19,993 bases of DNA from a virus. Its lineage: Duplodnaviria; Heunggongvirae; Uroviricota; Caudoviricetes. Positions 3,371 to 19,993 of the stretch are shown piece by piece. A program made the translations under genes and the position numbers. The stretch is from IMG/VR virus record IMGVR_UViG_2671180846_000035. One strand, 5' to 3'. Every line of letters begins with the position of its first letter. Position 1 is the stretch's first letter. The notes under the pieces were generated by a model. It was not told the DNA's origin and did not search any database. It saw nothing but the letters and a program-made list of their open reading frames with translations.

Positions 3371-3864
3371 CAGCACAGCTCCGCAAACATTCGCGGTCGT
3401 CCCAGAATGTCAGAGATGGCCCAGCTCACATCGCGCCACAAATCCGATGTCTGTATATCCAGTGCGTCCGCCCGGCGGTCGCCCTTGTCCGTTGTGTCCG
3501 CATCGCGGTAACGCTCCAGAATCAGGGCGCGTGTGGCGGTATAAACAGCATTGCGCCAGTGCCAGAGATTGACGCTTTCTCCGTTAATTACAGGGGCCGG
3601 AACATCGGCCAGCGTCTGATAGCCAGCCGCCTGTTGTTCCTGCTGCCATGCTTCCAGCTCGCGGGTAACGTGTGCTATGGCCCCGGTGGCGGTATGCAGC
3701 AGGCGGGAGGTGGTCACGCGGCCCGGCAGTCGTACCGCCAGACGCAGCTCACGCAGCACAATATCCGGCCAGAATGCACCCGCTGAAATGCGAGTGTCGC
3801 CATCATCGGTATCGGTGATGTCGTCCTCTGCGGGGCCGGGGTTAGTTCTGGCAACCATACTCAT
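3370..3864 (-). CDS. L: Head completion/stabilization protein (P2 gpL family)
   Basis: Synteny (M-L-X) and size. ATG at 3864 preferred for its AGGAG Shine-Dalgarno; the track ORF starts at a GTG at 3873. Confidence 0.75.
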   Translation of the reverse strand: MSMVARTNPGPAEDDITDTDDGDTRISAGAFWPDIVLRELRLAVRLPGRVTTSRLLHTATGAIAHVTRELEAWQQEQQAAGYQTLADVPAPVINGESVNLWHWRNAVYTATRALILERYRDADTTDKGDRRADALDIQTSDLWRDVSWAISDILGRPRMFAELC

Positions 3865-3965
3865 GGGGTTCACTCCTGAAAAAATCGGGCGGTGGGTGCG
3901 CGGTGTAAACGGTCACGGAGTCAAACCGGAACACCGCGCACGCCGCCCGCTGACGGGGTCAGTCG

Positions 3966-4766
3966 TTAACCGCGCTTTGCCTTCTGCGTCGCGGTGGTTT
4001 TTCGTGTTGCAGGCTTCCGCGTTGTCTTTTTATTTTTGCTGCTTTCGTCCTGCGCCTGCTGTGCGCTGGCGTCTTCTGGTTCGGCTGCGGAATCGGCTTT
4101 TTTCAGGGCGCGGGAAAGGGTTGCAATCTCGCGTTTCACACCTGCGTTCGGGTTCAGGTGCATCGCTTCGCGCAGCAGCTTCAGTGATGAGGCCATGTTG
4201 TCTGCATCGGTCAGGCCACGACGGGCAAAGGCACACGCCTTGCATAATTTGGCGCGCACTTCGTCCGGAATGTCCTGGTTGGCGACAATTTCCCAAAGTG
4301 TGTCCAGTGGTTCGATAAAGGCGGATAAATCCGCGTCGGCATCCGTCCCAGCCTGCGTCAGTACCGGGTTGCAGATTTCTTCGGTCAGTACCGTGGCAGC
4401 AGTACGGCCAAAGTTATCCGGCATGATGAGGTTGTGACGGACCACATATGCACCAATACGCAGCGCCAGCGGAAGATCGCCGCAGTCAATCGCCCACACC
4501 ATCAGCGTGGCAATTACTTCGTCCTGTTGCCCGCCGTCAGCCTCCAGCGTTCCCTCAATCCAGCCGGAAAAGTCCGGCAACAACTCTTTTTTGATGGCGG
4601 CTTTCGCGCTTCTGGCCTGTATGGCCTTTAGCCTGGCCTGTGCCAGACGCAGACGATACAGCACTTCTTCATGCGCGGTACACGCGGCGTGGTCCACACC
4701 TTCATTCGCCCGGCCTGCGCGCTGTGCCATCACGTTCTGCCAGTGTTGTTGTGCAGGAGTAATCAT
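3966..4766 (-). CDS. M: Terminase endonuclease subunit (P2 gpM family)
   Basis: 266 aa with a lysine-rich C-terminal tail, immediately downstream of the capsid gene; GGAGAG Shine-Dalgarno before the ATG. Confidence 0.8.
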   Translation of the reverse strand: MITPAQQHWQNVMAQRAGRANEGVDHAACTAHEEVLYRLRLAQARLKAIQARSAKAAIKKELLPDFSGWIEGTLEADGGQQDEVIATLMVWAIDCGDLPLALRIGAYVVRHNLIMPDNFGRTAATVLTEEICNPVLTQAGTDADADLSAFIEPLDTLWEIVANQDIPDEVRAKLCKACAFARRGLTDADNMASSLKLLREAMHLNPNAGVKREIATLSRALKKADSAAEPEDASAQQAQDESSKNKKTTRKPATRKTTATQKAKRG

Positions 4767-4811
4767 TTTTTCTCTCCGTTACAGGCGGGCATGATGCCCG
4801 CCGTGAGTTGA

Positions 4812-5864
4812 TTAGCTGTCGGCGAACTTCAGGCCAGTGACCATCGCGCACTTGCCATAGTCTTCAACGACATAAGCGTCATTGATGGACTGGTAGGTGG
4901 CGATGCGGTTGTATTCCGGCTCGTCTTTCATCAGACGACGCATTGAACCTTTCTGCCAGTAAATCGACAGGTTGTTGAACGAGGTGATAAGCATCGTTGC
5001 ATCCGGGAAGAACGGCGCAAGGAACACGCCCAGCCCGCCAATGGTGCGCGATGACAGGATGAGCTGCCCGGCAAGTAATTCCGCATTGGGATTCTGGCCG
5101 CTGATGCTGTTCAGCACGGGCAGACGCAGCGAGTTAAACAGGTTGCGCCCCATAATCACCACGAGGTCGTCAGCTTCCTTGTGCCATTCATCCAGCAGGG
5201 ATGAGCGCGCATCCTGTACCAGAGCATCGGCATTCGCATACTTACCCGCGTGCGCCACAGTGTTGTCCATGTTGCGGGAGGTCAGCGTCACGTCATTCAT
5301 TACGCGCTCGCTGGCATCGGTTCTGATGTGCTCCAGCCAGCCCACGTTAACGTCCTGAAGCAGCTTGTTGGTGTGAAAATCAGACTCGTAGGCGTGGGAT
5401 GTGCCGTTAAAGCCAATCATGATGCGATCAAGCGCTACCTGCCGGGCGATCTGTGTACTGATACGGGACTGAAAATCGCTGTGGGCCGCCCAGGTATCAA
5501 GCTGTGGGTACGAAATAAAGGTATCGTAGTTCACCTGTTCGCACTGGTACTGACGAGACTTCATATCGATCACGTTATTCGGGTTACGGCGTTTGATGCC
5601 GTCATAACTGCTATTCGTGCGCGCAATTGGCCCGGTGGTGTCCGGGAGGATTTTTTCGCCTTTCTGGTCGGTCACGCCGATCACGTTAATTCTTTTCGTA
5701 AATTCGGTACTTTCCTTTGAGGCGTTTTCAAAACGCTGCTGCACCGCGGGTTCCACGGTAAATCGCGATACCAGTGCAGATACCGGGATATTGTTAAGCG
5801 ACGCCTGCTGCGCCATATAGCAACCCAGCTTGTTGCGGGTAATATCTGACATCACCAGATTCAT
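4812..5864 (-). CDS. N: Major capsid protein (P2 gpN family)
   Basis: 350 aa; segments FTVEP, GFNG, LVVIMGR, ENLSIY-like and YVVEDY match my recollection of P2 gpN; position between O and M. Confidence 0.9.
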   Translation of the reverse strand: MNLVMSDITRNKLGCYMAQQASLNNIPVSALVSRFTVEPAVQQRFENASKESTEFTKRINVIGVTDQKGEKILPDTTGPIARTNSSYDGIKRRNPNNVIDMKSRQYQCEQVNYDTFISYPQLDTWAAHSDFQSRISTQIARQVALDRIMIGFNGTSHAYESDFHTNKLLQDVNVGWLEHIRTDASERVMNDVTLTSRNMDNTVAHAGKYANADALVQDARSSLLDEWHKEADDLVVIMGRNLFNSLRLPVLNSISGQNPNAELLAGQLILSSRTIGGLGVFLAPFFPDATMLITSFNNLSIYWQKGSMRRLMKDEPEYNRIATYQSINDAYVVEDYGKCAMVTGLKFADS

Positions 5865-9676: not shown

Positions 9677-9703
9677 CGCGCTTCGCTTGTCTGCTGCTTC
9701 GCC

Positions 9704-9726
9704 GGGGCATAAAAAATTTATGCCCC
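9704..9726. terminator. Stem-loop downstream of Q (GGGGCATAAA-aaa-TTTATGCCCC), candidate terminator
   Basis: Perfect 10-bp inverted repeat about 30 bp after the Q stop. No clean U tract follows on either strand, so intrinsic terminator function is uncertain. Coordinates approximate. Confidence 0.3.
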
Positions 9727-9729
9727 GAC

Positions 9730-10165
9730 TCTCCAGCTCCTGTATCAATCAGATAATTTCACGACGCTTTTCTGCTTATTGTCATCATCGGCGGTCAGAC
9801 TCTTACGCAATCCCACCGCGTTGACTGCATGTTCTCGCCGCCTCAGTGCGATTTTGACGGCCTTATCTGCCACCCATCAAATCAAAAGCCCTCACGTCTT
9901 TTTCACGCTCAGCGTGAGAAATACAGCCATTCTGTTGTGTCGCTGCGACATCGTTCAGGGGATGCTATTTACCCCCTGAAACGCGGGCTGTTCCCCCGTC
10001 ACCTGCGCGCAGAAAAAGCGCGTTTTTTTGTGCACGCACGGATCCTTGACGGATCCAGCCGCCATGCGGGCCGGAAGGGTAAAAAGTCGTTCAAAAAAAT
10101 TGTGCAAACTTGTGCACTATTGTGCAGCAGGGCGATGCGCGATTATCGCCCTGGTTTGAGGGGGA
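9730..10165. other. Non-coding cos-proximal region (expected location of cos/packaging site by P2 synteny)
   Basis: About 490 bp without a credible ORF between Q and the next gene. Contains several palindromes (about 9903-9917, 9954-9980, 10129-10152) and three TGTGCA repeats at 10-bp phasing (about 10101-10126). The P2 19-nt cohesive-end sequence as I remember it was not found. Confidence 0.35.
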
Positions 10166-10756
10166 TCAGGTGTTATTTTTATCTGTCGTCAGTGGGCTAA
10201 ACCATCCACGATTTACATCGCAGGACTGATGCGTTCTGTCCTCGTGTTTCTCCTGCCACAATGCTTTTCCGCCAGCCTTTATGATGGCTCTTTCAACATC
10301 CCGCTCGTATCGCAAGGGCTGAAATACGTCATTAATGAAATATTCGCTTATGTCCGGAAGCGATACTGCAAAATTATTTGTTTGTTGCGCCGTCCTGCTA
10401 TGCAGCAAAGCGGCATACTTTAATGCGTCCTGTGCTTTCTGGAATTTAAGTGCATAGTCAGTGGCGATTTTTTCCAGTTCAGCGATTCGGTTGTCTTTGG
10501 TTTCCAGCCAATCAAGTAGCGCCAATACTTCAGGATCCCCGACATCCAACACTGTTACGCGTGATTTTTCATAATGTTCGTCGGCAAGAGTTCGGCCAAT
10601 TTTGAAATCTCCATCATCACCATAACCGGAGCAGGCATAAACAACCTGTGCTCCAGATATTCGCTGAATTGACATTTCCTCGCCGCAAATAGGGCATTTC
10701 GGTACTGGCACAGGTGAATAACGTTCACGTAATGCCTGATAGTTGATTTCGCTCAT
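10166..10756 (-). CDS. Ead/Ea22-like family protein with N-terminal zinc-ribbon motif
   Basis: 196 aa; CPICGEEM...YACSGYGDDGDF resembles a Cys4 zinc ribbon; the coiled-coil segment LLDWLETKDNRIAELEKIA resembles Ea22-like proteins; AAGGAG Shine-Dalgarno. Confidence 0.5.
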   Translation of the reverse strand: MSEINYQALRERYSPVPVPKCPICGEEMSIQRISGAQVVYACSGYGDDGDFKIGRTLADEHYEKSRVTVLDVGDPEVLALLDWLETKDNRIAELEKIATDYALKFQKAQDALKYAALLHSRTAQQTNNFAVSLPDISEYFINDVFQPLRYERDVERAIIKAGGKALWQEKHEDRTHQSCDVNRGWFSPLTTDKNNT

Positions 10757-10819
10757 TAAGTCGTTCTCCTTGTTTATGTTCTGAGGTGGAGAGCAGGGCG
10801 AACTCGCCCTGATGTTTTG

Positions 10820-11131
10820 TTATTCAGGAAATAACGCCCGGATATTTCCGGCCATCTGACTGGTTATCTGTGCGGTTGATACTGGCTGTGATGCGGGGCG
10901 TTCTGTCCTGGTTTGTGTCACTGATAACGCTTCATCACCAGCCCATGCAGCCAGTCGATAAGCCTCTGCCGGATTCATTTTCAGAAGTGCCAGCCCGGCC
11001 AGAAAAGCCACGCGTTGGCCGCTTTTGCGGGCTTCTGGTGTAAGGCTGTCCAGCCAGGCGCATGCTTCTCCTTCGTTCTTGACGGCGGTGGGCTTCAGAT
11101 AGAAACTTATCCGTCTGGTTGGAGTCGTCAT
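10820..11131 (-). CDS. parR: ParR-like centromere-binding protein (103 aa from the internal ATG)
   Basis: RRISFYLKP...LDSLTPEARKSGQRVAFLAGLALL aligns with my recollection of R1 ParR (RRTIAFKLNP...LDSIPQGERSRLNRAALTAGLAL). The ATG at 11131 has a strong AAGGAG Shine-Dalgarno and sits 4 nt after the parM stop. Confidence 0.65.
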   Translation of the reverse strand: MTTPTRRISFYLKPTAVKNEGEACAWLDSLTPEARKSGQRVAFLAGLALLKMNPAEAYRLAAWAGDEALSVTQTRTERPASQPVSTAQITSQMAGNIRALFPE

Positions 11132-11135
11132 TGGT

Positions 11136-12095
11136 TTACTCCTTGTCCATTGCGTACAGCCCATTAACCAGAGCAAACTGTGGCACCCCGTCCGCGATGA
11201 AAGTCGCATTAACTCCGCAGGCTTCGCGGATAGCGGGTGCCACAATCTCCGCCCCTCCACCGACAACCATCACCCGCCCGTAACCCGAAAAACCCGCCAG
11301 CGCGCGGATCACGCGTTGTTTCAGTGTTTCTTCCTTTTCACGAATAACCGCCATCAGGCTGGCGTAATGCGCGTCATTGTGGATGTGCTGGCGCAGCCAG
11401 GCTTCATCATGGCGATGTTCGATAATGGTATTGGCGATGTGGTGACTGGTGCGCATACCGTTAGTGGCCATCACCGACAGTACGGCATCGGCCATCAGAG
11501 AAACGCCCACGTGTGGATCGCAAAACACCTGGCTGATACCTGCCAGTTGCCCCTGAACCTTTGCCACATCCAGAGTGGTTCCGCCCAAATCCACAATCAG
11601 CAGGGATTCAAACGGACTCATGTCAGCCAGTGCCTTAAAGCCAGCCGGAATGGATTCAGGCATAACCCGTACGTTACGGATAGTGAATGCTTCGCCGTTC
11701 TGGTACTCCACCGGGCGCATGACGTTCGCTTTTTTGCGGTTGATGTTGGCCATGTCCGGCTGTGCGTTTGTATCGAAATACTCGCTCAGTGGCAGGGTGA
11801 CAACCACATCCACTTCCTGTGGTGTGATGCCTGATTTGACCAGCGCGTGATGAATGGCAATTATATTCACATCGCTGTACTGGTATTGCGTGTCGGTCGT
11901 CTGGACAAAGCGATCGCTGACCGGATCAAAACCATAGCGCACGCCATCAAGCATGTAGTTCGCGGGCTGCGTGCCACCGAACGGCGCAGACCATTCCGAC
12001 TTGAAGCTGTTCGGGCTGATGGCGTTGCGGCGTTCGCCGTTCTCAGTCCATGCCAGCTTGATGTTGGTGGAGCCGTCGTCGATACAAATTTTCAT
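11136..12095 (-). CDS. parM: ParM/StbA-like actin-type segregation ATPase
   Basis: 319 aa. Motifs IDDGSTNIKLAW, ISPNSFK, YQYSDVNIIAIHHAL, VMPESIPAGF, LIVDLGGTTLDV, GVSL, FSGY..VMVVGGGAE and LVNGLY are collinear with plasmid R1 ParM as I remember it. Confidence 0.85.
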   Translation of the reverse strand: MKICIDDGSTNIKLAWTENGERRNAISPNSFKSEWSAPFGGTQPANYMLDGVRYGFDPVSDRFVQTTDTQYQYSDVNIIAIHHALVKSGITPQEVDVVVTLPLSEYFDTNAQPDMANINRKKANVMRPVEYQNGEAFTIRNVRVMPESIPAGFKALADMSPFESLLIVDLGGTTLDVAKVQGQLAGISQVFCDPHVGVSLMADAVLSVMATNGMRTSHHIANTIIEHRHDEAWLRQHIHNDAHYASLMAVIREKEETLKQRVIRALAGFSGYGRVMVVGGGAEIVAPAIREACGVNATFIADGVPQFALVNGLYAMDKE

Positions 12096-12099
12096 GTCG

Positions 12100-12230
12100 C
12101 TTTTCCTTGTGTTGATTAATTAATCGGTTACAGGATTTTTAAATCCCGCTTTTGCCTGTTTTGTGCGCGCTTCATATATCGCGGCACGTTTTTTGCTCAT
12201 TTACGGGATTTGTGAGTCCCGTTTCTGTCT
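12100..12230. promoter_or_regulatory. Candidate parMR promoter/centromere-like region (paired imperfect palindromes)
   Basis: Two related 18-bp dyads, cAGGATTTttAAATCCcg (about 12131-12148) and CGGGAtttgtgagTCCCG (about 12204-12221), plus repeated TTTTGCCTGTTTT-like T-rich motifs upstream of parM; partly inside the 3' end of A. Confidence 0.3.
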
Positions 12231-17256: not shown

Positions 17257-17463
17257 TCAGGAAGATTTGTTTTGTTCTTTCTGGGTTAGCTCTAGGCCGC
17301 GAAGGAAGATCATGCGCGCCATGTTAGAGGATGAGCGTTGTTCTTTAGCTGCCATTTCATCAATGACGGCTCGCTCCTCGAGGGACAGCCGAAGTGCCAG
17401 TCTTGGACCTGTGGCGGTGTTACGCGGAATGCGTGATCTGGTATCGTGAAGAACTTGTTTCAT
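17257..17463 (-). CDS. Small DNA-binding regulator (possible ribbon-helix-helix), first gene of the early operon
   Basis: 68 aa; the RLALRLSLEERAVIDEMAAKE pattern resembles an RHH beta-strand plus helix; position is Cro/Apl-like, divergent from the repressor. Confidence 0.45.
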   Translation of the reverse strand: MKQVLHDTRSRIPRNTATGPRLALRLSLEERAVIDEMAAKEQRSSSNMARMIFLRGLELTQKEQNKSS

Positions 17464-17538
17464 AGTGGTATATTGTGATCATCTAATAGCTCGTGAAATC
17501 ATTTTGGTATCAAAAAAGATACCTGTCAAGGTTTTTGT
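17464..17538. promoter_or_regulatory. Lysis/lysogeny switch region with divergent promoters and candidate operator
   Basis: 75-bp region between the divergently transcribed repressor and early operon; perfect dyad GGTATC-aaaaaa-GATACC (about 17506-17523) and a TGGTAT repeat. Confidence 0.5.
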
Positions 17539-17943
17539 ATGAAAAATGATATTGGTCAGCGGTTGCGTGAGGAAAGGGAAAGATTGGGACTTAGTCAAGT
17601 TGCCATGAGCGACATTGGTGGAGTCAAAAAGCTAACTCAGCTTAGATATGAGAAAGGAGATAGCTTTCCTGATGCTGCGTATTTGGCAGCGCTGTCTCGT
17701 TTTGGCCTTGATGTTCAGTATGTTGTGTTGGGAATTCACTCACCTGAAACTTATAACGATGATGAGCAGGAGTTGATTACTCGCTTTCGAGCAGCTTCGT
17801 TAGATGTGAAAAACGCGGTGATCGGGGCTTTAAAAGGTGCGATCAGTGAAAAGGAAACTCAGCCATCAGGACGTGAGTTAAATATTTCTGGTGGTAATAA
17901 CCGTATCGCTGGTCGTGACTATAACGAAACTAAGGGTAGGTGA
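17539..17943 (+). CDS. Immunity repressor, HTH XRE/Cro-CI family
   Basis: 134 aa; N-terminal HTH (GQRLREERERLGLSQVAMSDIGGVKKLTQLRYEKG); transcribed towards int, opposite to the early operon, as for P2 C / 186 cI. Confidence 0.75.
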   Translation: MKNDIGQRLREERERLGLSQVAMSDIGGVKKLTQLRYEKGDSFPDAAYLAALSRFGLDVQYVVLGIHSPETYNDDEQELITRFRAASLDVKNAVIGALKGAISEKETQPSGRELNISGGNNRIAGRDYNETKGR

Positions 17944-17958
17944 TAGTAGGGAGGTGAC

Positions 17959-18609
17959 ATGGCCGTCAACTCAAACGGTTCAAACAATCGCGTTGCTGGG
18001 CGTGATTTTCACGAAAAGAATATTCAGATAGAGCGATATGATGGTTCTCATACCGTCAATATCGCAATCCCTTCGAATAATGATGATGACGATCGCCCTT
18101 TGCTTAAGGCTCAGCGTAAGGAGCTAAATAGCTTGGTTGCTGCTATTGCAGAAGCTAGCAATACTGAAGCGTTTATTATTTGGCAAAAAGTACATGCGGA
18201 GATTGGTGTAGCTGGTATTGATGATATGACAGTAAATCAATATAAAACAGCGGAGAGTTTTCTGCATGCAATGCTTGAGCGATGTAAAGATCATGATGCC
18301 TGTAAGACTCTTGTAAGTTTATTACTACGTAACAGTGAAGACTGTGGACTTCGACAAAAACTTCTGCGGTATTGCCATATCAATTTCGGTACAGGACGTT
18401 TAAACGATCTTACTCGTTCTCAGTTACAGTCTGCATTGTCGTGGTTAGAGCAACAATCGGCATCAAGTCACACAGAGAGTTCGGCCTTACCAGAAGTTCG
18501 ACTTCGTGCTTCAGAATTAATCCGACTTTATCCAAAAGAAATAATATTCTTTATCTGCGTAGGGGTTTTGGTAGGCGGTGCCATTTCTAGGGTGTTTTTT
18601 AATTTGTAA
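17959..18609 (+). CDS. Tail-anchored membrane protein of unknown function (216 aa)
   Basis: C-terminal hydrophobic segment IIFFICVGVLVGGAISRVFF; GGGAGG Shine-Dalgarno; AT-rich relative to the structural genes; inserted between repressor and int. Confidence 0.6.
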   Translation: MAVNSNGSNNRVAGRDFHEKNIQIERYDGSHTVNIAIPSNNDDDDRPLLKAQRKELNSLVAAIAEASNTEAFIIWQKVHAEIGVAGIDDMTVNQYKTAESFLHAMLERCKDHDACKTLVSLLLRNSEDCGLRQKLLRYCHINFGTGRLNDLTRSQLQSALSWLEQQSASSHTESSALPEVRLRASELIRLYPKEIIFFICVGVLVGGAISRVFFNL

Positions 18610-18638
18610 TCTTACTTGAGCTAAATTGAGGTAATGAT

Positions 18639-18986
18639 ATGAAAGTAAAAAAGGTTCAACTATTAGTTACTTTTTTATCTATGTTTTCTTTTTCCGCCGT
18701 CGCAATGCCTTTTAAAACTATTGAACGTGAGAGTTTCAATGGGGTATGGCCATTTAATACTGATGAGGTTCAATTACAGTGTCTTGATGGTAATCCTTAT
18801 GTGATGAATTTTGACGATAATAAGTTATATGCGCTTACAGGTTTAGCTCGAATAAAAGGTAAAACATTTGGTGCGTTACCGTTAGATAACAATAATCCAT
18901 TTTGGCTAGATAATGATGCCGCCCCAGGGTTAAAAAAGAGTCTGGGGGATGTCACTAAGGCTGCATTTGATTTATGTGATAAGTAA
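18639..18986 (+). CDS. Small secreted/periplasmic protein with signal peptide (115 aa)
   Basis: N-terminal signal peptide MKVKKVQLLVTFLSMFSFSAVA; two Cys in the mature part; GAGG Shine-Dalgarno; AT-rich. Confidence 0.6.
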   Translation: MKVKKVQLLVTFLSMFSFSAVAMPFKTIERESFNGVWPFNTDEVQLQCLDGNPYVMNFDDNKLYALTGLARIKGKTFGALPLDNNNPFWLDNDAAPGLKKSLGDVTKAAFDLCDK

Positions 18987-18991
18987 CTAAA

Positions 18992-19993
18992 ATGTCGGTT
19001 CGTAAGATTCCATCAGGTAAATGGCTTTGCGAATGTTATCCCTACGGGGCATCGGGAAAACGCATTCGTAAACAGTTTGCGACAAAAAGTGAGGCGCTCT
19101 CTTATGAGCGCCGTTTAATGAATAGTAGAGTTGGAGACGAGTTTCAAGATGGTTCTGGTCCTCGTCTTTCTGAGTTGATTGCTCGTTGGTTTGAGATGTA
19201 CGGTAAAACCTTGTCCTCTGGTGCAGAGCGCAAAGTCAAACTTGAGGCGATTTGTTCCAGGCTGGGGGATCCATTTGCTTCTCAGTTTGACAAAAATATG
19301 TTTGCTACTTATCGGGAAAGAAGGCTATCAGGAGAATGGAATCCCAAGGGGAAGAAAAAACTTAGTGAAGCAACCGTTAATCGCGAGCAGTCATATCTAC
19401 ATGCTGTTTTTGCCGAACTGAAGCGCCTTGGGGAGTGGTCTGGTGAAAACCCCCTGACTGGTATTCGCAAGTTTCGTGAGGAAGAAAAGGAACTGGCGTT
19501 TCTGTATGTAGATGAGATTGAACGCCTTCTGATTGCGTGTGATGAGTCACGGAATAAAGATTTGGGGGTTGTTGTCCGTATTGGGCTTGCGACTGGTGCT
19601 CGGTGGAGTGAAGCTGAAGGATTAAAGCAATCTCAAGTACTGCCCGGTCGAATCACATTTGTTAAAACTAAAGGAAAGAAGAACCGCACTGTACCGATTT
19701 CACCTCAATTGCAGGCTATGCTTCCTCAAAAACGAGGAGCGCTATTTTCACCATGTTATGAGGCTTTTGACGCTGCAATTAAGAGAGCGAAGATCGAGCT
19801 TCCTGATGGGCAATTAACTCATGTGCTACGTCACACGTTTGCCAGTCATTTTATGATGCGGGGCGGAAATATTCTTGTGTTGCAAAAAATACTGGGGCAT
19901 AGCGATATAAAAATGACTATGCGTTATGCGCATTTTGCTCCAGGTCATTTAGAGGCTGCTGTTGAATTGAACCCTTTTGACAATAGAGGGTAA
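18992..19993 (+). CDS. int: Tyrosine integrase, P2 Int family
   Basis: 333 aa; GKRIRKQF..KSEA, ..GARWSEAEGLK.., RITFVKTKGKKNRTVPIS, HVLRHTFASHFMMRGGNILVLQKILGH and MTMRYAHFAP match my recollection of P2 Int, including the catalytic R..HxxR..Y. Stop codon is at the window end. Confidence 0.9.
   Translation: MSVRKIPSGKWLCECYPYGASGKRIRKQFATKSEALSYERRLMNSRVGDEFQDGSGPRLSELIARWFEMYGKTLSSGAERKVKLEAICSRLGDPFASQFDKNMFATYRERRLSGEWNPKGKKKLSEATVNREQSYLHAVFAELKRLGEWSGENPLTGIRKFREEEKELAFLYVDEIERLLIACDESRNKDLGVVVRIGLATGARWSEAEGLKQSQVLPGRITFVKTKGKKNRTVPISPQLQAMLPQKRGALFSPCYEAFDAAIKRAKIELPDGQLTHVLRHTFASHFMMRGGNILVLQKILGHSDIKMTMRYAHFAPGHLEAAVELNPFDNRG

Follow-up and report, generated by a model that had tools for sequence, protein, structure and literature searches.

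A gene following the immunity repressor of a P2-like prophage mirrors the repressor's C-terminal motif and may encode its membrane-anchored partner, next to an exchangeable cargo slot

What do two genes standing between a prophage's immunity repressor and its integrase do for the phage or its host? The question is raised by a 19,993-nucleotide (nt) stretch of viral DNA (IMG/VR record IMGVR_UViG_2671180846_000035), which we call the window. Between the gene for an XRE-type helix-turn-helix (HTH) repressor (17539..17943) and that for a tyrosine integrase (18992..19993), two plus-strand open reading frames (ORFs) encode products of 216 and 115 residues: ORF216 (17959..18609) and ORF115 (18639..18986). 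The initial annotation placed both genes and their coordinates correctly, and took them to be an AT-rich two-gene insertion of no recognisable family, in which a membrane protein and a periplasmic protein form a superinfection-exclusion or abortive-infection module. Our analysis points to a different answer. With moderate confidence, and on the strength of sequence comparison, we propose that ORF216 is a membrane-anchored partner of the repressor and that ORF115 is independent cargo for lysogenic conversion.

The evidence that carries this proposal is a motif shared by the repressor and the protein encoded next to it. The repressor ends with ...LNISGGNNRIAGRDYNETKGR and ORF216 starts with MAVNSNGSNNRVAGRDFHEKN...: a motif in the repressor's C-terminal tail (LNISGGNNRIAGRDYNE, residues 114-130, plus strand, 17878..17928) is mirrored at the N terminus of ORF216 (VNSNGSNNRVAGRDFHE, residues 3-19, plus strand, 17965..18015), and a six-frame search of the window gave no match to the motif besides these two. 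The Smith-Waterman score of the tail against the N terminus is 62, compared with 22.1 ± 4.3 for 500 shuffles (z 9.2). Residues S5, G7, N10, R11, D16 and E19 are invariant among 28 ORF216 homologues, and the repressor tail, ...SG.GNR[VI]AGRD[YF]NE.K, is found at the extreme C end in 91 of 93 related loci. Across the related Enterobacterales loci, both tail and N terminus are conserved despite the divergence of the HTH parts. A degenerate second copy of the motif may occupy residues 22-38 of ORF216.

Different codons are used at five of the nine shared motif residues, and no DNA repeat was detected in the window; it is thus at the protein level that the similarity has been maintained. On the same two grounds we reject a recent duplication of the motif in the DNA. 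A split gene, or read-through from one gene into the other, was also considered and rejected: three stops intervene, and the corresponding gaps at other loci are 8, 11 or 13 nt, which puts the two genes in different frames there. The intervening stops form an in-frame run (TGA TAG TAG, 17941-17949) that ends the repressor gene just before the ribosome-binding site (RBS) of ORF216.

Could the motif nevertheless be a functionless relic of recombination or of a split gene? Two observations lend themselves to this explanation. First, a heteroimmune E. coli relative loses DNA homology to the window in the HTH region and regains it at 17902, inside the tail motif, and the homology then continues into ORF216, so that the mosaic joint lies at the motif itself. 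Second, the window and several other loci have the repressor and ORF216 in one reading frame. We nevertheless regard a relic as extremely improbable. The differing codons, the lack of a DNA repeat, the three consecutive stops and the out-of-frame loci all speak against it, as does the conservation of the motif, in matched variants, across phages of Enterobacterales, Pseudomonas, Burkholderia and Ralstonia. In addition, no fused HTH-Flk_N protein, which would combine the repressor with the domain found in ORF216 (see below), is present among 137 family representatives or 80 scanned loci.

The pairing extends well beyond the relatives of this prophage. An exact-pattern scan of IMG/VR with N-R-x-A-G-R-D-[FY]-x-E yielded at least 80 loci with the motif. 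Among the matches listed, it stands at the extreme N end of small membrane proteins at least 75 times, at the extreme C end of mostly HTH repressor-like ORFs at least 30 times, and elsewhere three times, all of which are mis-called starts. For 44 of the 50 distinct proteins with an N-terminal motif among these matches, the upstream ORF ends in the motif, within 2-29 nt in 43 of them and about 150 nt upstream in the case of the repressor of locus L128. The partners show at least four architectures: Flk_N with a tail anchor, a zinc ribbon with two transmembrane (TM) helices, a 140-residue family with two TM helices, and the type represented by ORF20 of phage B3. The pairing occurs on P2-like backbones and on those of Mu-like transposable phages (B3, Ps59, and L104 with its rve transposase). 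In the Pseudomonas Mu-like phage B3, the repressor-like ORF18 ends with ...ISVTGDGNRTAGRDFHERKE and the next gene, ORF20, starts with VNIEVTGSNNIVAGRDFIEN; ORF20 is a two-helix membrane protein without Flk_N, and phage Ps59 has the same arrangement. The metagenomic transposable phage L104 pairs the tail ...VTGSGNRVAGDNYYEKK with MGDIDVKGSKNRTAGRNYYE.... In another metagenomic locus (L103, 707-1003), the Flk_N gene is followed by a gene for a 98-residue protein with two hydrophobic helices and a motif-like start (VTVVGDNNITASGDLNIGL); a repressor can thus be followed by more than one motif-bearing membrane protein.

Burkholderia and Ralstonia phages with related repressors have different tails, and each of these tails is mirrored by the gene that follows. 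In BcepMu (gp17 and gp18), phiE255 and vB_E433, the tail VFHGSVGQAVKVEG precedes a protein starting with EFNKPVGQAIQAGE; in the Mu-like phage KS10, MVASGSGITQVGS precedes MSASGFGIIQVAG; in the P2-like phage KS5, as in vB_SR4 and vB_FUB5a, NFEGASIGQQVTGDV precedes KFDGEIGQVAGGDV; and in the P2-like phage RS-AB1, VFHGAVGDVKNVSG precedes EFHGEVKKVINGTT. The start of the RS-AB1 partner is mis-annotated. At 2333-2701 of this Ralstonia phage (L234), a 68-residue gene is annotated, and it is the N terminus of a longer ORF that mirrors the repressor tail; the gene is probably an ORF of about 122 residues starting at 2333 (MKSRFEFHGEVKKVINGTT...). Scored against shuffles, the pairs reach z values of 9.2 (window), 8.8 (B3), 5.2 (KS5), 5.0 (KS10) and 3.5 (BcepMu). 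A matrix of scores for 18 pairs is block-diagonal for four motif types, with within-type block means of 54, 41, 36 and 35.5, cross-type means of 17-31, and shuffles at 19 ± 4; RS-AB1 represents a fifth type. Tail and N terminus thus covary at the level of lineages. A single host genus holds three of the motif types, which argues against a common host binding site. Conversely, the phages Dobby, Mana and Menos have related repressors that carry no tail motif, and they have no such partner.

By analogy, the mirroring may be likened to pairs of a regulator and its partner, or to adjacent genes that share a motif. The second kind of precedent is provided by amyloid-signalling pairs (Bab/Agp, or BASS11, in E. 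coli, Bell/NLR pairs with BASS motifs, and NWD2/HET-S of fungi), in which adjacent genes share a terminal motif, as they do here, and in which motif families differ between lineages and match within a pair (bioRxiv 10.1101/2024.11.07.622273, 10.1101/2020.01.06.895854). The repressor tail and the ORF216 N terminus might likewise be short beta-arch motifs that template each other, with one of two outcomes: the membrane protein would become a toxic effector (abortive infection), or the repressor would be aggregated and so inactivated (induction). The resemblance is considerable: a motif of about 17-25 residues, rich in Gly, Asn and Gln, lies at the C end of one protein and the N end of the next, its families are lineage-specific and match within pairs, and small membrane proteins serve as partners. 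ORF216 and its relatives seem to have one clear repeat and a degenerate one, where HET-s has two, and Bab/Agp provides a precedent in E. coli prophage islands (bioRxiv 10.1101/2024.11.07.622273). The components themselves are different, however: the pairs described here consist of an HTH repressor and a small membrane protein of the Flk_N, zinc-ribbon or another type, and no partner is an NLR/STAND protein, a TPR or other large sensor, or a Bell/HeLo-type effector. The motif also contains several charged residues, the AlphaFold2 (AF2) model shows no beta structure, and a lysogen that constitutively made a prion-like trigger together with its repressor would run a risk. We therefore judge the amyloid explanation unlikely. 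If it were true, P2-like and Mu-like temperate phages would have the inner membrane wired directly to their lysis-lysogeny switch, or to a membrane effector of cell death, and amyloid-type signalling would extend from NLR immunity to phage immunity repressors.

What kind of protein carries the N-terminal copy of the motif? ORF216 belongs to the Flk_N / PHROG 5825 family without being Flk itself. Its match to phrog_5825 spans the entire protein (E 3.7e-102, positions 1-207 of 208), and Pfam PF27202 (Flk_N) is assigned to the 99%-identical cluster of ORF216 and to its homologues in precomputed annotation. The match to the NCBIfam equivalog model for Flk (PRK10715; E 9e-16) covers residues 37-166 only and reaches 58.1 bits against a cut-off of 353 bits. 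A profile search covering 1.84 billion representative sequences found 137 relatives, which form two classes: phage-type proteins of about 200 residues, and Flk proteins of 320-410 residues in which the unit is duplicated. The single Flk_N unit of ORF216 aligns with either half of a Flk-like protein, with 24-25% identity to both repeats. Among PDB sequences, a profile search with the ORF216 family gave no match, and a fold search of BFVD with the ORF216 model gave weak matches only (best E 2e-3), including an ORF6C-domain protein. The initial view that the two genes belong to no recognisable family is thus superseded for ORF216, as it is for ORF115, a DUF2511/phrog_2950 protein.

The AF2 model of ORF216 (mean predicted local distance difference test score, pLDDT, 73.5) is confidently all-helical from about residue 45 to residue 172, followed by a terminal membrane helix. 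The first of these parts is the Flk_N domain (residues 45-172, plus strand, 18091..18474), which comprises two small helical bundles. The second is the C-terminal anchor (residues 194-216, plus strand, 18538..18606), which is the hydropathy peak of the protein, its only strongly hydrophobic stretch (KD19 maximum 2.36), and helical in the model. Hydropathy gave no sign of an N-terminal signal in ORF216, and its homologues stop 0-7 residues past the anchor. ORF216 is thus predicted to be a tail-anchored inner-membrane protein with its N-terminal domain, and with it the motif, in the cytoplasm.

The same topology is known from Flk (RflH or 'Fluke') of Salmonella and E. coli, for which the tail anchor has been established experimentally (PMC6794478, PMC13344023) and which, like ORF216, is cytoplasmic, anchored at its C terminus and built from homologous Flk_N units. 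Flk regulates flagellar export, keeping the export apparatus in its early mode, possibly via FlhA (PMC13344023). It differs from ORF216 in having two Flk_N units, a Pro-rich N terminus without the NR.AGRD motif, a length of 330-410 residues and a chromosomal gene; ORF216 has one unit and a motif matching that of the repressor, and its gene follows a prophage repressor. Chromosomal Flk (P0183, P0185, P0187) resembles a tandem-duplicated phage-type Flk_N unit with the same tail anchor and without the N-terminal motif. Judged by this resemblance in sequence, the host flagellar regulator may be a domesticated gene of a prophage immunity region, and our work suggests such an origin for it.

Might ORF216 then simply do what Flk does? 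It would act on the gate of flagellar type III export or on another membrane machine and change the motility or the surface structures of the lysogen, the motif being incidental. Repressor-adjacent genes that block pili are known in Pseudomonas Mu-like phages, and the homology of ORF216 to both repeats of Flk, together with the shared topology, fits this explanation. The low identity to Flk and a score far below the family cut-off do not, and the gene is widespread in Klebsiella, a non-flagellated host. In other phages, moreover, the partners keep the motif and the membrane anchor and exchange Flk_N for unrelated domains, which suggests that the conserved function lies in the motif and not in Flk_N. 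Host manipulation of the Flk kind appears to us very unlikely.

How could a partner of this kind serve the repressor? We propose that the repressor and ORF216 make up a conserved immunity cassette of two genes, with ORF216 in second place. The last ~17 residues of the XRE-type repressor form the Gly/Asn-rich motif with which its cytoplasm-facing membrane partner also begins, and the N-terminal motif of ORF216 would engage the repressor tail at the cytoplasmic face of the inner membrane. This engagement would set the pool of active repressor, by sequestration or by release upon a cue from the membrane or envelope, and would thereby tune immunity or SOS-independent induction. The conserved task of the partner would be to present the motif at the membrane; its middle part is replaceable, and in ORF216 the helical bundles of Flk_N could be a module for protein interaction or sensing. 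Regulators with a membrane-anchored partner, often co-transcribed, are well known, as in the anti-sigma factors of the sigma-E/RseA type, or in Mlc, which is held by PtsG. The likeness lies in the proposed interaction; there is no homology between these systems and the repressor/ORF216 pair. In such sequestration systems the partner may bear a periplasmic sensing part; BcepMu gp18 and KS5 gp12 have an added, Cys-containing periplasmic tail, which fits a transmembrane sensor.

If this proposal is correct, a second component of immunity has so far gone undescribed in a large group of temperate phages, to which P2-like phages of Enterobacterales and Burkholderia belong, as do the Mu-like B3 and BcepMu. 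This component would also be a candidate link between the state of the membrane or envelope and induction where the repressor has no LexA-like cleavage domain. In the repressor of the window, neither a peptidase S24 nor a LexA-like cleavage domain was found among Pfam and PHROG profile matches. A scan of the window for LexA boxes gave counts at chance level and no convincing box, so SOS control cannot be judged. The mirroring of motifs between repressor and partner has apparently not been described before: in the searchable literature, coverage of which is incomplete, we found no description of it, and no functional study of ORF216-type proteins or of B3 ORF20, BcepMu gp18 or KS5 gp12.

This leaves the second gene. 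Do ORF216 and ORF115 work together, as first supposed, to exclude superinfecting phage or abort infection? The neighbourhoods of ORF216 homologues are informative here. We examined 93 loci from E. coli, Klebsiella, Enterobacter, Serratia, Mixta, Izhakiella, Rosenbergiella and IMG/VR contigs, and in 91 of them the Flk_N gene begins 8-18 nt after a gene for an HTH repressor of 127-134 residues. In contrast to this constancy, the stretch from the Flk_N gene to int varies from 322 to 1850 nt and has at least eight unrelated contents: DUF2511 proteins (115-118 residues), DUF8087 proteins (85-108 residues), a BRCT plus WYL-like protein (288-295 residues), a TerB-like plus BRCT protein (298 residues), secreted proteins of 128-137 residues, two- and three-gene sets, or no ORF at all. 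Even on one Klebsiella backbone with the same att site (pgsA-uvrC), the slot holds either the BRCT/WYL-like protein or DUF2511. The slot upstream of int is thus a hypervariable accessory hotspot of prophages with exchangeable genes. It follows that ORF115 occupies the position of a variable insert, as the term two-gene insertion implied, whereas ORF216 belongs to the immunity region of this lineage as a constant component. The base composition agrees only in part with two AT-rich genes: ORF115 has a GC content of 35.3% and is clearly AT-rich, and ORF216, at 41.0%, is close to the repressor (44.2%) and int (45.1%).

Several of the slot alleles deserve separate mention. Those of BRCT type occur in Klebsiella and Enterobacter (L002, 5647-6513; L080, 4648-5535; L067, 4641-5537). 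The 288-295-residue allele has an N-terminal BRCT domain and a WYL-like middle, the 298-residue allele has a C-terminal BRCT-like region, and each shows weak similarity to the PADLOC candidate PDC-S48. The secreted allele of 128-137 residues (L232, 2237-2623; L078, 4706-5119) has a signal peptide and the sequence 'EWYEGGTL...', and is without a family match; since it occurs besides ORF115, the slot repeatedly carries exported proteins. With PADLOC, the slot alleles show weak similarity only, at the level of BRCT/WYL, to PDC-S48 and WYL models, and none of those examined proved to contain a known defence system.

Some features of the locus do fit a joint module. One product is tail-anchored and the other secreted, as originally stated, the former by the hydropathy of residues 194-216 and the latter by its signal peptide. 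The repressor, ORF216, ORF115 and int are probably co-transcribed, as also first thought, and their expression would then take place in lysogens: the spacers, of 15, 29 and 5 nt, all contain a purine run resembling an RBS, and no terminator-like site was found on the plus strand from repressor to int. Moreover, in all the loci whose context was read, phage-type DUF2511 genes lie in this slot, directly after the Flk_N gene. The dependence is therefore one-sided and fits cargo: ORF216 occurs with many unrelated downstream genes or none, and in both its position and its motif it tracks the repressor rather than ORF115. Nor would the two products readily meet, because ORF216 exposes at most seven residues past its membrane helix and hence has nothing with which to contact a periplasmic partner.

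Two of the checks that had been suggested for the defence model went against it. The pair is not conserved in other prophages, the Flk_N gene being constant and the gene before int varying, and the recognisable relatives are non-defence proteins, Flk for the one and YebY/MlbQ for the other. ORF216 and ORF115 gave no match at E up to 1 to any of 5027 PADLOC models, and PADLOC gave none for int. A joint exclusion or abortive-infection module is accordingly very improbable in our view, marginally more so than a Flk-like role; ORF115 could still be an exclusion or conversion factor on its own.

Precedents for accessory genes expressed from a prophage are not lacking. The rexAB genes of lambda are lysogen-expressed exclusion genes co-transcribed with the repressor, and P2 has the accessory genes old, tin and fun. 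Accessory genes of this kind were the analogy behind the first reading of the locus; those named here have no homology to ORF216 or ORF115. The old/tin hotspot of P2, furthermore, lies between gpA and gpQ and not at the repressor-int position (PMC9122126), and at the corresponding site the window has ParM/StbB-like and Ead-like genes. A parallel that also favours a joint module is found in K139-like, P2-related vibriophages, which have a variable, lysogen-expressed locus between cI and int, occupied in K139 by the periplasmic protein Glo (PMC9122126, PMC4870250). Both are variable loci between repressor and integrase, but the present slot follows a constant Flk_N gene; no sequence relation was seen, and none was tested.

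What, then, is ORF115? It is a DUF2511 member, though not the operon-linked YebY. It scores 28.4 bits against Pfam PF10709 (gathering threshold 21) and E 9e-40 against phrog_2950, is labelled DUF2511/YebY family in RefSeq, and matches E. coli YebY (7n0j) in phmmer with E 0.0027. Residues W37, C48 and C113 are invariant across 13 homologues and occupy the positions of the hallmark residues of YebY (PMC8689200), and a disulfide between Cys48 and Cys113 is expected. The signal peptide (residues 1-22, plus strand, 18639-18704) has a K-rich n-region, a hydrophobic core and an A-V-A/MP cleavage site, and A22, P24 and F25 are nearly invariant in the family. The AF2 model, of moderate confidence (pLDDT 75.8), matches YebY 7n0j in a Foldseek search of the PDB with E 1.5e-4, probability 1.0 and TM 0.73-0.80, and MlbQ with E 0.01; no further PDB entry matched at E <1.

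With YebY (7n0j) and MlbQ (2mvo), the latter a lantibiotic self-resistance lipoprotein, ORF115 thus has in common the signal peptide, Trp37, the pair Cys48-Cys113 and the fold. It differs from YebY in sequence (about 26-32% identity) and in setting: it is AT-rich prophage cargo with the Flk_N gene and int as neighbours, outside the yobA-yebZ-yebY (CopC/CopD) copper operon. That homologues of YebY occur in Enterobacteriaceae between a CI-type repressor of phage origin and a XerD-like recombinase had already been pointed out by Hadley et al. (PMC8689200). Because of the YebY/MlbQ fold, ORF115 most likely binds an extracytoplasmic ligand. We propose that it is a separate, exchangeable moron, exported by the Sec pathway, stabilised by its disulfide and made in lysogens, which would act in lysogenic conversion, for example by protecting the cell from a peptide toxin or from a component of an incoming phage. 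Independently of this role, the analysis defines a new, hypervariable slot for cargo genes upstream of int, whose occupants encode secreted and BRCT-type proteins that are still uncharacterised.

Several observations weigh against the proposal of a repressor partner and separate cargo. Within the NR.AGRD type, pair-specific covariation was sought by eye and none was seen, and the covariation between types rests on about five of them. KS10 gp12 has no membrane helix. In the AF2 monomer model of ORF216, residues 1-28 and 31-38, which include the motif, have pLDDT <50 and no confident structure. E. coli YebY has been linked to copper delivery and not to phage (PMC8689200, PMC11923076). Finally, the Pseudomonas phage Komp_PAO1_1 has a motif-like repressor tail and no adjacent partner, and a third factor recognising both copies would produce the same pattern of mirrored motifs. 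At 1681-2826 of Komp_PAO1_1 (L233), a tail of the BcepMu type (SFHGPVGQAAQGD) is followed by a gene whose secreted product lacks the motif; the tail may therefore serve a purpose apart from any partner.

The last two points lead to an explanation in which the copies do not touch each other. The motif would be a shared tag, bound in both copies by a co-evolving antirepressor, protease or adaptor, and ORF216 would be a membrane-bound decoy or competitor that buffers the turnover of the repressor. The equal conservation of both copies and the lack of visible covariation within a type are what one would expect of such a tag. In phage Mu, indeed, proteolysis is controlled by repressor tails. Yet degrons are usually specific for one terminus, and the present copies lie at opposite ends of their proteins, C-terminal in the repressor and N-terminal in ORF216. 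The occurrence of three motif types in one host genus speaks against a host factor, and the window, which holds about half the prophage, contains no third copy and no obvious partner. We consider the tag doubtful, about as much so as the amyloid pair, and retain the membrane-anchored repressor partner as the preferred interpretation of ORF216.

The remaining features of the window bear out its identity as a portion of a P2-like E. coli prophage, roughly half of which is in view. Genes for a P2-family capsid, GPO scaffold, terminase, portal and GpA replication protein are present, and after GpA the minus strand carries Cox-like and Arc-like early genes, with the repressor opposite them as in P2-like phages. 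The divergent control region between this early lytic operon and the repressor operon (17464..17538, intergenic) has a sigma-70-like site on the minus strand (17529-17501) and an inverted repeat (17498-17516 / 17532-17550); its DNA is 87% conserved in the heteroimmune relative, and it may act as the operator. The repressor (134 residues, plus strand) matches Pfam HTH_31/HTH_3 and the repressor families phrog_8, phrog_4 and phrog_3. The integrase (333 residues, plus strand; Int_N E 5e-32, Phage_integrase E 2e-22 in Pfam) ends with the last base of the window, and in E. coli the prophage is integrated next to yecA.

The final 2.6 kb of the window are 98% identical to Escherichia phage 520873 (Peduoviridae, Xuanwuvirus) and occur at ≥80% coverage in 506 of 5426 complete E. 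coli genomes (~9%), many of them O157:H7. The exact ORF216 sequence is present on at least 1000 contigs, as is each of the three proteins of the region, annotated as hypothetical or by a DUF only. In the phage genome collection, the ORF216 and ORF115 region was found in one phage, 520873, where the genes are frameshifted and unannotated, and in no characterised phage. At 3560-5585 of 520873 (L001, NC_049344), ORF216 and ORF115 each match in three pieces and int is divided into two coding sequences, which suggests frameshifts or sequencing errors. In some strains, IS1A and ISVsa5 interrupt the repressor-int region (the homologue of 17400-19993 in the window), as in the E. coli genomes H3 (NZ_AP042519) and H10 (NZ_CP168998).

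A second hotspot, between the portal gene (gpQ) and gpA (9700-12150), holds minus-strand genes at 10166-10756, 10820-11266 and 11136-12095, none of which has a PADLOC match. They comprise an Ead/Ea22-like gene and a plasmid-type partition pair, made up of a Plasmid_stab_B/StbB-like protein (E 8e-23) and a ParM/StbA actin-like ATPase (E 4e-82), which is an odd possession for an integrating prophage.

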